A stretch of DNA of 64,000 nt from Escherichia coli. GTDB taxonomy: Bacteria; Pseudomonadota; Gammaproteobacteria; Enterobacterales; Enterobacteriaceae. The position numbers were made by a program. Below are positions 1 to 5,076 of the stretch, one piece after another (the first letter of the stretch is position 1; the number at the start of each line of letters is the position of its first letter). Location: assembly GCF_045037415.1 (NCBI RefSeq), contig NZ_CP173438.1; one strand, given 5' to 3'.

Positions 1-3000
1 TTCTTGCCGCCAGACGCTGTTCTGCTGAACAGCCCCGGACCTCTGCCTCGATGGCATACAGTTCACCGATACGCTGCAGGGCTTCCGTGGTGATGTAGGT
101 GGGCGCTCTTGCATGCACATCGTGGATTTTTCTCCGGGCATGAGCCATACACGCGGCTTCCGTTATTCTGCCGGATTCGTATAACGCCCGGTAACCACCG
201 TAAGCATCGGCCTGAAGCACACCGCTGTAACCGGCCAGGTGATTTTGTGGATGGATACCTTTCCGGTCCGGACTGTACGCGAACCAGACCGCCGGGGGCA
301 TCTGTGAACCGGCGTTACGGTCATCACGGACGTAGACCCACAGCCGGGCTGTCCGGGTTTTACCGCTGCCCGGCTCCTGGACCGGGACGGGGATATCATC
401 AGCATGGACTTTACCGGGCATCAGCACATACTGGCGCAGGACGTCATACAGCGGCTCCAGCAGTTCAGCAACAGCACCTGTCCAGCGCCCCAGTGTGGCA
501 CGGCTCAGCTCCACTCCCTGACGACGGTATATTTCTGACTGGCGGTATAACGGCAGATGGTCTGCATATTTCCCGGTGACAACATGGGCCAGAAGCCCCG
601 CTCCGGCATAACTGCGTGCAATGGGTTTTGAAGGTACTGGTGCCTGCACGATATGGTCGCACCGGCAACAGGCCTGTTTCGGACGTTGTGTTTCGATAAC
701 CTTAAAGGCGCTGCTGATAAGCTCCAGTTGCTCTGACACATCACATCCCAGAGAACTGAGTTCACCACCACAGGCAGGACAGCATTCCTCTTCCGGCCGG
801 ATAACCCGGGTTTCACGGGGAAGTGAGGCCGGTAACGGTTTACGGGCTGAAGACTGGCGCAGGGCGGATGGCAGTACCGGGTCATATTGCTCACCCAGCG
901 TTTCCGCCATTTCTTCCTGAAGTGCGCTGATTCGCTCCTGTGCTTCCTGTATCTGCCGTTCGGTTTTTGCACGAAGTTTTTCTGAGCTTTTACCGAACTG
1001 CATACGTTGCAGTTTCGCAACCAGCGCCTTCAGCCGGTTGATTTCGGAAGCATAAGCCGCCACCCGCTGTGAGAGCAGGCGGTTGTATTCAGCCATCTGG
1101 CGGATGGTGTCCTGTTGCGTCTGCAACAGTGCCCGCAGGCGGGCGTTCTCATGAGCAAGTGAGGTGTCCATATCCTCACTTTACAACGGGTTATATGCGG
1201 ATTCCAGCGCGTTCCGTTCGTTTCGGGTGCTTCCAGTTGATACCTTCAAGAAGCATGGATAACTGAGCCGGAGTAAGGTGCACCTTGCCGTCACGGGTGA
1301 CTGGCCAGACGAAGCGGCCCCGCTCCAGGCGTTTGGTGAAGAGGCACAGTCCGTCACTGTCAGCCCACAACACTTTTATCTGGTCACCCCGGCGTCCGCG
1401 GAAGATGAACAGGTGTCCGGAGAACGGGTCATCCTTCAGGACGTTCTGAACTTTTGATGCCAGGCCGTTAAAGCCATTTCGCATATCGGTGATACCTGCA
1501 ACCAGCCAGATACGCGAACCTGCAGGGAGAGATATCATCAGTGGCTGCTCCCTTTTATTTCGCGGATAAGTGTCTGTAATAACGCCGGCGTCAGTTTACC
1601 TTTAAGCCTGAGAGTTCCGGCCGGCAGAACCAGCTCACAACACAGACTGTCGGACGGTGTATTTATCTGCTCTGGTTCCTGTGCGGGGGCCGGGATTTTA
1701 TTATCCGGCTCCGGCGTTAACGTCACGGGAAGCAGTGCCGGCATATTTTTTCCGGAAGGCAGCAGGCCACCTTTCCGGTATTGATGGCGCCAGTTGAAGA
1801 GCAGGTTATCGTTGATTCCGTTTTCCCGGGCGATCTGCGCCACACAGGCTCCGGGCTGCAGTGACTGCTCCACTAAGGCGATTTTAAACTCATAAGGGAA
1901 GTTGGGCCGCCGGGGACGTTTTTTTACCACGGGGGCTTCGGATATAACGGTGCTTTCAGGACGTACGACTGGTACCGTGGAAAATTGTCCGTAAAGGCAG
2001 GCATCAAGTTCCTGCTCCGACATGCCTGCGGGCAAAGGCCACGAAAGGCCAGCTCTCCGAAAGCGCACGAACATACTACAAACTGTTGATTTTGGTACAC
2101 CCAGGCGACGCCCGGCCACAACCCGGGGTAAATGTTCTTCAAAGTGAAGACGTAAAGCTTCAGTGATCCAGGTCCGGTGTTTCATACGATAGTGTCCATT
2201 AAAAATGATGGACATTATTTTTGTAGAGCCGGAGGAAACAGACCAGACGGTTTAAATGAGCCGGTTACTCATTGACGCCATTTTCACGTGCAATCTGTGC
2301 AACACAAGCTCCAGGTTGTGATGCCAGTTCCACCATACGAAGTTTGAATTCATTCGAATAGTTTTTACGAGGTTCTTTTCGCCAGTCCTGTAATTCCATA
2401 CTTAGATGTCCGTCTATATCAGATGGGCGTCTAAGTTACCAATTCTCGTCTGATGGCTACATACGGCGGTCAGTTTACGCTTACGCCACTGAAATGAAGA
2501 ATTCAGAGAGACTGAATGATATGTCGCACCTTCAGTGAATAGTGTAAAAACTGGGATATTCTCATCCGGGATTACCCACTCATACTCAATGCGTAACTTT
2601 AGTGCGGCCCCCACAGGTAAGAGCCGGACACATTCGTTGTGTATGCTGCAGAATCGGTAACCGGAGGCCCTGCGGTCCTTAACTCAGTGTCTTGTGTTGC
2701 TCATTTGCCACAAAGTCCTGGTACGCCTGCTCAATCATTTCATTCAGCAGTTTTTTTGGGAGGACACCACGACTTCGGGCAATACTTTCAAGCTGTTTGT
2801 GGATTTTTCCGGACAGTTTCAGCGGGACGGAACCATCAGCACGTTCATCACGCCTTTTTTGTTGCTCCCGGGCACTTTTCAGCTCATCAAGAAGAATCGC
2901 TTTATGCTGAATCCTGGGGGCCTGGAAGGAGGCCTGCGTAAACTTCGCTCTGTTCCGTCTGGGATTACTTTCCAGTAAAAACTGTACCTGTTGCTCATTC

Positions 3001-5076
3001 CAGCCTTCCCAGTTATCAAACGTGGCGCAGGCGAACCAGTATTTCTGCTCCGGGGTAAGGGGATTCAGCGGGGTTCCCACACACCGGACCTGCATGGCGT
3101 TCCATAACCAGTCACACTGTTCACTGTCCCTGCTGTCCACCCACGAAAAGGGGGAGGGGTAATCATTGTTTATGCTGGCCCATTCAGAGAATACTGAGTT
3201 GATAATCGTCCTCGTAGCCTCTGGTCCGGATTTCAGCAGGTAACTGGAGCAGAACCATATAATTTCACGGTAGATATTATCCGGATGCACGGTGCGCATC
3301 GGCTTTTCTCTGGGACCGGCAATCTTCGGTTGCGATGGAAAACCCATGGCAAACCGCAGATGTTCCGGGGGCATTCCTGAACGTTTTTCAGGAATGGGTG
3401 TGAGTCCTGCGTTTCTGGTCTTTTCCGCTTGTCCGGTATTGCCTCCGGCCGGAGTGTTGTCGGGAGTATCTTCCGGAGGCGAGGTGTTTTCATTAGTGGG
3501 GGGAACAACAATAGAACTGTCCATCTCCGGAATGGGGTGAGGGGCATAATCACTGTGGTAGCCCGGGGAAAGCGTTAAGTCCCGAAGGGTGACATCAGGT
3601 TCCGGGCAGTGAGTGCCACCGGGAGTGAACGGGAGTTGTTGCTTTTGGGGGAAAAATGTATTGTGAATGCGGGTATACAGCCGGAACAGAAAAAAATAAG
3701 ATGCCCGTGGTTCTTTTTTTAACCACTTTGTATATTCCTCTATGGCACCGAGCTGTTGTTTGTGCCGTTTTACAGCATCGATATACGGACAGCTGGTGCA
3801 GATATCATCCAGTTCCTTTCCCACAATACACCTCACCTGCTCTTCCCACATTTGCAGATTTTAAGAAAGCAAACAAAAACCTCCGTACATGATGTACAGA
3901 ATGTACAGAACAATCTATCAGGTACTGGCGTCAGAAGAGCTCCGGGCCGCCTGCATTTTCCGGAATGCGCCGGTTATGAAAAACCGGAAATTCAGTCTCT
4001 GTTGTAAGATGTACCCTCTGATACTACGTTTTCGTTTTCTCTGTGTATTTAACTCACTGTATTTATTGTCTTTTTAAGCCTGACTGGTATTCTCCGGTCA
4101 TAGTGTGCCGGATATATATCCCGTAATCTTCTCATTTTTATATAAAAATACCTGCACTCTCTTCAGCGCATCTGTCTCCTTTAAGTAAAAAATGTTTTCA
4201 CGTATTGCTGTAAATTCATTTTAAATCAGTGTATTACCTTGATATTGCTGTCTCCTGGTTTGATGCGTAATCGTTCTGCCTTTCTGGATGATTCTGGTGC
4301 TTCCGGGTGCATTCTCCTCTGCACATGCAACAGTTCGTCATCGCCACGTTCCCAAAAAGCATATAAAAACGAATCGAATTTGATATTTTTTTCAATCGTT
4401 TTTCATAGGAATTTCGTAGGGTGTTCTCCGCTATAACCTCCATATTTGCTGTCTTTTTCTTCATAAATCGTATGCAATGTAGCCTGTCTGTCAAGACCTC
4501 TTCTCTGCTGTTGAGGAGACGATCTCATTTTTGGTCTTTTCCGGGAGAGAGGCTGTCAGATGAGCGAGCCGGATTTACTGTCAGAGGTACACCCCGTAGC
4601 AGACCTGTGCTCCCATTTCCGCGATCCGGAACCAACAACGCCCTACGGTTAATACTATTTGAAGCGTCAGGTACTGCAGGAAGTTCCCCCCTGCGCGGAC
4701 ATCGGTTCCTGCCGACATCTCACAATACGGTCAGACTGTCATGCAGTAACACCCGCAATGCGGTCTGCGGTTTTAAGTGCACCGATAATGCGTCATAGTA
4801 AGTCTGGGGGAGTTACGGAATGCCTGTTAAGTCGTGCCGTGGGTGGAGACAGCTTACTTTTCCACAGCAACTGCAGTCATTCAGGATGATCAGGAGATAT
4901 TCTGTCAATGTCACGATCCTGCCATTTTCGTACCCGCTAAGATACTTCCGTTACTGATGCTGTCCGCTTTTCACCATTTCATCCTCACTGACAGGCGTTG
5001 CGTTTTGGGTCATCACCACAGCTTTACGTTTCTCTTTTAACCGGTAACGCTCTCCTTTGATATTCAGCGTGGTTGA

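Follow-up and report, generated by a model that had tools for sequence, protein, structure and literature searches.

The window analysed here, the whole of a 64,000-nucleotide stretch of Escherichia coli DNA, carries a conserved gene whose place within the backbone of CP4-44/CP4-57-type islands, which use a P4 integrase, is fixed. With moderate confidence, we propose that its product is a sequence-specific DNA-binding regulator belonging to this backbone, and probably one that regulates its own gene. We consider a regulatory role the best reading because the C-terminal tail of the protein lies nearest to repressor families and because a conserved repeat element precedes the gene.

Islands of the CP4-44/CP4-57 type are among the commonest accessory elements of E. 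coli and its relatives, and CP4-type cargo includes virulence, iron-uptake, adhesin (Ag43), toxin-antitoxin and anti-phage genes. Of their backbone, only the integrase and AlpA have been studied, and the control and mobilisation of CP4-type islands are still a gap. The gene described here is the only backbone member with a clear sequence-specific DNA-binding domain at the alpA/Gp2-like junction, and its prevalence and position make it a worthwhile experimental target. An island regulator at this place would give a direct experimental handle on island expression and excision, and would define a new protein family together with a helical domain that has no structural relative.

The gene and its product

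The gene is real, intact and conserved. Its open reading frame is present on the minus strand of the window, as follows.

2679..3851, minus strand: uncharacterised island protein, longest open reading frame, 390 amino acids
2679-3824, minus strand: probable actual coding sequence, 381 amino acids, GTG start; the same as RefSeq WP_001296206.1 / UniProt A0A061K4H7
3822..3838, minus strand: Shine-Dalgarno sequence AGGTGAGG, 6-nt spacer and GTG start codon (3824-3822); homologs begin at this residue

A search for a ribosome-binding site ahead of the ATG at 3851 found none. The GTG at 3824 is probably the true start, with a product of 381 amino acids, since AGGTGAGG precedes it, homologs start there and the RefSeq form has this length. 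RefSeq labels the 381-residue form 'hypothetical protein'.

Protein anatomy and the Trp-rich core

The sequence-only reading of this DNA had proposed a two-part architecture with a Pro/Thr linker, and composition, predicted disorder, a Trp-rich helical core and a C-terminal ribbon-helix-helix (RHH) domain all bear this out. The parts are:

3654..3788, minus strand: N-terminal two-helix hairpin, residues 22-66; motif W-[LIM]-K-x3-R-A-x2-F, with W43 and R49 invariant or nearly so
3372..3653, minus strand: Pro/Thr-rich loop, residues 67-160; predicted disordered, variable in sequence and length
2919..3371, minus strand: Trp-rich all-helical core, residues 161-311; motifs PxPFSW, CxWxW and ATFDxWxGW
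2838..2918, minus strand: long basic connecting helix, residues 312-338; HKxxLLDELKxAxxQxxRR
2682..2837, minus strand: ribbon-helix-helix domain, residues 339-390; strand VPLKLS, helix A KIHKQLESIARSRG, helix B PKKLLNEMIEQAYQDF

An AF2 model, a single-chain prediction built from a 30-sequence alignment, has pLDDT above 90 across most of the folded parts. It places the helix hairpin at residues 24-66, a short conserved segment at about residues 161-170, the all-helical core proper at 190-305 and the long basic helix at 313-338, and resolves the tail into an extended segment (339-347) and two helices (348-361 and 365-389). The loop, which is 18% Pro and 12% Thr, is nearly missing in the short members of the family (288-310 aa). 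The core packs 8 Trp into 127 residues, with W224, W237, W248 and D279 invariant. Across the whole family, the invariant or near-invariant positions are W43, R49, W224, F235, W237, W248, W250, F278, D279 and W281, followed by K317, A327, Q330, R334 and L354. Modelling suggests that the N-terminal hairpin packs on the core and forms one module with it, because a model from which loop and tail were deleted reaches a pTM of 0.84.

This Trp-rich helical module is new and has neither a family nor a known structural relative; comparison of the core with solved and viral structures gave no convincing match. A six-helix Greek-key bundle of the death-fold kind (DD/DED/CARD/PYD) was considered as a candidate fold for the core. 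The family alignment was also searched for a conserved set of His, Tyr or Cys residues that would suggest catalysis, and none was found. An HUH replication initiator or relaxase was rejected as a candidate, there being no invariant His or Tyr and no match to a Rep or relaxase family.

The C-terminal tail

An RHH-like tail had likewise been suggested from the sequence, and is corroborated by profiles of the family tails and by predicted structure. The tails carry the signature of the RHH (MetJ-Arc-CopG) superfamily: an N-terminal strand in which hydrophobic residues alternate, then helix A, a turn that contains Gly, and helix B. Pfam RepB-RCR_reg is matched by 6 of 21 family tails (best E 6.6e-6), and further Pfam matches of the tails are RHH_1, MatP_C, HicB, RHH_4 and RHH_5. 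Weak NCBIfam matches comprise the IncFII RepA regulatory protein, a LexA-regulated CopG-like protein, ORF56 and BrnA, while matches in PHROGs are to Arc-like repressors. Aligned with CopG of pMV158, the tail profile falls in the right register with an hhalign probability of 80% (E 1.4e-5); the alignment with P22 Arc is not significant. For the protein of the window taken alone, the RHH match to profiles stays below threshold, and support comes from family members and structure. The predicted tail superposes on solved RHH domains with the strand-helix-helix topology, and most of these structural matches are antitoxins (MazE4, TacA, ParD, FitA). The families closest to the tail are transcriptional repressors: CopB/RepA2-type RepB-RCR_reg, CopG and Arc-like proteins.

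Family membership and distribution

The family had not been recognised in the sequence-only reading, and indeed the whole protein has zero matches in Pfam, NCBIfam, PADLOC and PDB sequences. Its description as an orphan does not hold: a family of islands occurring in at least 10 genera encodes it as a conserved part of the backbone. An exhaustive HMMER search of 1.84 billion cluster representatives matched 63 proteins, about 25 of which are full-length relatives, at 18-36% identity. All sources annotate these relatives as hypothetical, with the sole exception of an automatic 'phage replication protein' label. Sequence comparison delineates a small undescribed protein family without a Pfam or NCBIfam model. 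Its hosts are Escherichia, Citrobacter, Cronobacter, Klebsiella, Serratia, Yersinia, Hafnia, Rouxiella, Brenneria, Enterobacter (a frameshifted copy) and Vibrio, and its motifs are deeply conserved between genera at 20-30% identity.

Within E. coli, the coding sequence occurs in 2,095 of 5,426 complete genomes (~39%), in 1-3 copies, and is chromosomal at 2,550 of 2,553 places. The gene is full length in 1,965 of the 5,426, where its varied alleles share 90-100% identity; descent within clonal lineages, ST131 among them, accounts for the many copies that are nearly the same. Only 3 of 72,556 plasmid records contain it, and none of 50,697 phage records. Against a 77%-identical E. coli allele, dN/dS is 0.33 in the N-terminal hairpin and 0.34 in the core, and reaches 0.59 in the loop and 0.78 in the tail.

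Island setting and neighbours

The window corresponds to the CP4-44 locus of K-12, a placement based on its three tRNA-Asn genes, cobUST and ldtA. The gene had been placed between IS elements, and is flanked on one side by IS66-family DNA (ISCro1 and a 5' fragment of ISEc23) and on the other by IS21 remnants carrying an inserted IS100. The suspicion of a degraded integrative element also proved right: the locus is full of IS elements, and a search for an integrase at the cobU junction found none left. The neighbouring features are:

3852..5111, minus strand: conserved non-coding 5' region of 1.26 kb, 76-88% identical to an undisrupted E. coli locus
8089-8706, minus strand: upstream island backbone, co-directional with the gene in E. 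coli; encodes a 205-aa protein that has no family and whose homologs are found along with the gene in other genera
8785-9063, minus strand: alpA, upstream island backbone, co-directional with the gene in E. coli
11963..12529, plus strand: YagK/YfjJ (inovirus Gp2-like) gene, which likewise always accompanies the family

The 5' region is intact and AT-rich near the gene, and the IS21/IS100 block interrupts the sequence further upstream. Downstream, the YeeP-type GTPase and its operon are missing from the window, with IS66 in their place. At the ST131 locus, all that survives of the GTPase is a remnant with an internal deletion, situated at a distance of 9 kb, past IS66 and a block of iron-uptake cargo.

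Where the E. coli locus is undisrupted, the order is alpA, a 200-aa protein, a 1.6-kb gap, the gene, the YeeP-type GTPase and Ag43, then dynamin-like, YjcZ, patatin and DUF932 genes. Citrobacter and Cronobacter have the gene in divergent orientation to alpA, and after it come the GTPase, a WYL/HTH protein, DUF932, antirestriction, RadC, DUF987, CbeA/CbtA and DUF4942; Serratia, Hafnia, Brenneria, Yersinia and one metagenomic locus share this arrangement. In short islands of the Vibrio type, the part around the gene is reduced to a P4-type integrase, the gene itself, and a divergent YagK/YfjJ (Gp2-like) gene with AlpA. Linkage of the gene to the island backbone set (alpA, YagK/YfjJ, YeeP/YfjP-type GTPase, DUF932, antirestriction, RadC, DUF987, CbeA/CbtA and P4-type integrase) is seen in E. 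coli, Citrobacter, Cronobacter, Serratia, Hafnia, Brenneria and Yersinia and in loci of the Vibrio type; this set in the window and in ST131 is present, IS-disrupted and lacking the integrase.

Repeats upstream of the gene

A repeat element is tied specifically to the sequence 5' of the gene. Six divergent loci outside E. coli have a CTACR-N6-CTACR direct repeat with a T-tract 99-155 bp upstream of the start, the two CTACR units being spaced 11 bp apart. Tandem RHH dimers (Arc, CopG, omega, TraM) typically read repeats one helical turn apart. A position weight matrix (PWM) built from five of the loci, with the Enterobacter locus held out, finds one outstanding site per locus at 36-41 bits, the next best scoring no more than 17, and recovers the held-out locus at 36.4 bits. 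Over 12 loci, all 8 direct CTACR pairs lie upstream of the gene, and 9 of 15 paired arrangements of any kind fall in the 250-bp upstream window, which makes up 1.7% of the sequence; the nominal binomial P of 5e-13 for this enrichment is overstated, since the loci represent only about 4-5 independent lineages. The Yersinia locus carries an inverted pair at -158 and a direct one at -54, and two short-type islands carry the palindrome ACTACGTAGT at -16 and -51.

The PWM detects no credible CTACR pair in E. coli loci. Two elements of the E. coli 5' region may take its place or descend from it:

3884..3910, minus strand: candidate operator TTCTGTACA TTCTGTACA TCATGTACG, three TGTAC cores with a 9-bp period
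4009..4034, plus strand: ATGTACCCTCTGATACTACGTTTTCG, possible degenerate relic of the CTACR element, inverted relative to the gene; PWM score about 11, the level of background

The TGTAC triple repeat lies 60-86 nt upstream of the GTG at 3824 and occurs nowhere else on either strand of the 64-kb window. The same sequence forms a hairpin with a T-run behind it. The 77%-identical E. coli allele has two TGTAC units only, and copy number varies between alleles. We connect ATGTACCCTCTGATACTACGTTTTCG with the CTACR element of other genera at low confidence.

A proposed autoregulator and its alternatives

In the mechanism we propose, the C-terminal RHH tails of two protein chains would pair to form a two-stranded beta-ribbon, which would read short repeated sites ahead of the protein's own gene; RHH proteins are obligate dimers whose antiparallel ribbon enters the major groove. 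In most genera these sites would be the CTACR pairs with their 11-bp spacing, and the TGTAC repeats would probably be the sites of E. coli; we infer the binding of the upstream repeats by the protein. Binding would control the gene's own promoter and the backbone operon that usually follows, from the YeeP-type GTPase onward, and alternatively or additionally the neighbouring alpA/Gp2-like module. The N-terminal hairpin and Trp-rich core would act as a compact module that oligomerises or binds a partner or signal, with the Pro/Thr loop dispensable. Several observations count against an autoregulator. The E. coli clade has no CTACR pair, despite an RHH strand (LKLS) similar to those of the other clades, and its TGTAC repeat differs in copy number from allele to allele. 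The E. coli gene is not divergent from alpA, lying instead 1.6 kb downstream. The RHH match of the window protein by itself is not significant, the core offers no assignable function, and in the window the downstream operon has given way to IS66. AlpA, the integrase, the Gp2-like protein or a host factor may be what the repeats serve, or the repeats may belong to the promoter.

Among the roles put forward in the sequence-only reading, the regulatory one fits best, given the repressor-type tail and the conserved repeat ahead of the gene. Nothing supports partition: a ParA-type partner was not found, and plasmids hardly ever carry the gene. For replication, the rival reading is that the protein assists, as a DNA-binding accessory factor, in the rolling-circle replication or the mobilisation of an island after excision; we regard this as unlikely. 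Here the RHH domain would bind repeats near an origin, as TraY, TraM, TrwA and NikA do at oriT, while the Gp2-like (HUH-type) initiator next door, or the coupling protein of a helper, would be recruited by the helical domain. A Gp2-like Rep gene is a constant neighbour; however, neither an origin nor a sequence resembling a nick site was identified, the repeats lie near the start of the gene, the place of a promoter-operator, and not beside the Gp2-like gene, and the near absence from plasmids and the repressor character of the best sequence matches argue in the same direction. As an extension of the regulator reading, the Trp-rich domain may be a new sensor fold bound by a helper protein from a phage or conjugative plasmid, making the protein an Stl-like master switch that would keep the alpA/Gp2-like excision-replication module and the backbone operon silent until the helper arrives. 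This idea, which would explain how CP4-type islands are mobilised without transfer genes, is attractive but improbable; it stems from the divergent position of the gene next to the integrase and the alpA/Gp2 module, and from the movement of similar Pseudomonas islands by jumbo-phage transduction (PMC12595487).

The GTPase gene suggests another possibility, which we hold to be quite improbable: that the protein is the antitoxin-like or regulatory half of a two-gene module of HicB-like layout, with an N-terminal partner-binding domain and an autoregulating C-terminal RHH, perhaps one that stabilises the island or defends against phages. In Citrobacter, Cronobacter, E. coli, Serratia, Hafnia, Brenneria, Yersinia and the metagenomic locus, the GTPase follows on the same strand after 84-170 bp, and the predominance of antitoxins among structural matches, with the weak HicB and BrnA matches, points the same way. 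Yet short-type members (Vibrio and relatives) have no adjacent GTPase, in ST131-type E. coli the gene is intact although the GTPase is a distant remnant, the two genes do not overlap, there is no sign of GTPase toxicity, and the PADLOC search returned no match. A type II antitoxin proper (HicB-, ParD- or MazE-like) was rejected, the GTPase being too distant and not universal, and no tight bicistronic toxin partner being found. Finally, it is most improbable that this is a decaying island gene with no present function in E. coli, kept intact mainly by clonal descent. Such decay would suit the heavy IS disruption of the island, the loss of the usual downstream partner and the integrase, the many near-identical copies from lineages such as ST131, the frameshifted Enterobacter copy and the dN/dS of the tail between two alleles; against it stand the number of genomes with a full-length gene and the diversity of its alleles, the low dN/dS of the folded parts, the motifs kept across distant genera and the confidently predicted fold.

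Comparison with known systems

The Pseudomonas IntY/AlpA/RadC/Gp2-like islands transduced by a jumbo phage (PMC12595487) resemble the islands studied here in having a core of tyrosine integrase, AlpA, RadC and inovirus Gp2-like genes, defence cargo and no self-transfer genes; hosts and integrases differ, and PMC12595487 reports no homolog of the island protein. The resemblance to Stl-type master repressors of phage-inducible chromosomal islands is positional only: in most genera the gene lies beside the integrase or is divergent from the alpA/replication module, and a DNA-binding domain is joined to a large domain of variable context possibly able to bind an inducer, but Stl uses a non-homologous HTH. 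Unlike phage-inducible islands, CP4-type islands have no packaging or capsid-remodelling genes and no known helper.

Among RHH proteins, TraM of F-like plasmids and other relaxosome accessory proteins show no similarity to the island protein beyond the RHH itself, which is N-terminal in TraM and C-terminal here; moreover, the island has no conjugation genes and the gene is not plasmid-borne. HicB-type antitoxins share the layout of a larger N-terminal domain before a C-terminal RHH, and a conserved downstream partner in most loci. However, the N-terminal domain of the island protein is all-helical and unrelated to the HicB fold, and its partner is a GTPase instead of HicA, in a pairing that is not universal.

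The closest likeness is to CopG/CopB(RepA2)-type repressors (RHH_1, RepB-RCR_reg), with which the protein shares the strand, helix A, Gly-turn and helix B of its C-terminal 50 residues, the best profile matches, the hhalign register and short repeats ahead of its own gene. Those repressors are proteins of 45-90 aa with little beyond the RHH, whereas here the RHH is preceded by a 230-residue helical module of no known fold, and binding and repression are predicted. RHH regulators have long been known, and a regulator in an island backbone is no surprise; what is new is a C-terminal RHH domain placed behind a Trp-rich helical module in a protein of 381 amino acids.

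Non-coding region upstream of the RHH gene

In E. coli islands, a conserved non-coding stretch of about 1.6 kb, which is unusually long, separates the RHH gene, encoding an uncharacterised island protein, from alpA and the adjacent gene for a 205-aa protein.

Window 3852-5111 and 7781-8089: conserved non-coding gap (counterpart at 8400-10000 in L005, a comparison locus from another genome)
Window 3881-3901, minus strand: hairpin formed by TGTAC repeats (9-bp stem, then GTTTTTGTTT)

The gap is AT-rich beside the RHH gene (38-40% GC) and contains a single strong promoter-like site, TTGACA-16-TACGAT, on the minus strand at window 4494-4467. 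An Rfam search of this gap returned no matches, and tblastx revealed no concealed gene remnant. Immediately upstream of the RHH gene, the TGTAC-repeat hairpin together with the following GTTTTTGTTT scores as an intrinsic-terminator-like site. The predicted terminator-like hairpin could insulate the RHH gene against read-through from alpA, a role that could be either an alternative or an addition to that of the repeats as a candidate operator.

Insertion elements and GTPase remnant

Window 1538-2215, minus strand, and 2265-2465: composite IS66-family element adjoining the RHH gene
Window ~4950-7260: IS100 within the remnant of another IS21-family element
Window 5349-6371: IS100 istA
Window 6368-7063: IS100 istB (231-aa ORF)
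L001 11166-11597: YeeP-type GTPase remnant in ST131 strain THO-003, outside the window

In the composite element, an ISEc23 5' fragment (the start of tnpA) meets a second, distinct member of the IS66 family, ISCro1, at position 2265. The first ORF of ISCro1 (225 aa) is extended at its N-terminus by a segment similar to an IS21-type HTH. In ST131 reference strains this place is instead occupied by an intact ISEc23. RefSeq labels the 231-aa istB ORF only as 'AAA family ATPase'. In THO-003, all that is left of the GTPase that normally follows the RHH gene is an internally deleted 144-aa ORF in which residues 1-65 are joined to 208-290; between this remnant and the RHH gene lie ISEc23 and a cargo block for iron uptake (TonB receptor/ABC).

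Left junction of the island

Window 34572-38880: three tRNA-Asn genes (asnV/asnU/asnW region)

These tRNA genes are interspersed with nac, cbl and yeeO. The island's end lies at cobU, where there are IS4 and fragments of cobalamin genes, rather than at a tRNA, and its present left junction is therefore secondary.

Backbone and cargo in other islands

Window 8089-8706, minus strand: gene for the 205-aa protein, directly after alpA
L002-L004 2831-6837; L015 1-5276; L009 1-5332: defence cargo regions in comparison loci

The 205-aa protein has no Pfam family. Since its homologs (191-200 aa) travel with the RHH gene in further E. coli islands and in other genera (Citrobacter, Serratia, Hafnia, Brenneria), it is the product of a second uncharacterised backbone gene.

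In islands with distant RHH-gene homologs, the stretch from the integrase to the alpA module contains defence cargo, among it a UvrD helicase paired with a Gabija-like OLD-TOPRIM ATPase, N6/N4 methylases, an SNF2/DEAD helicase with DUF1156, and DUF6119. A TIR-like protein of 325-330 aa is encoded in the Serratia and Hafnia loci.
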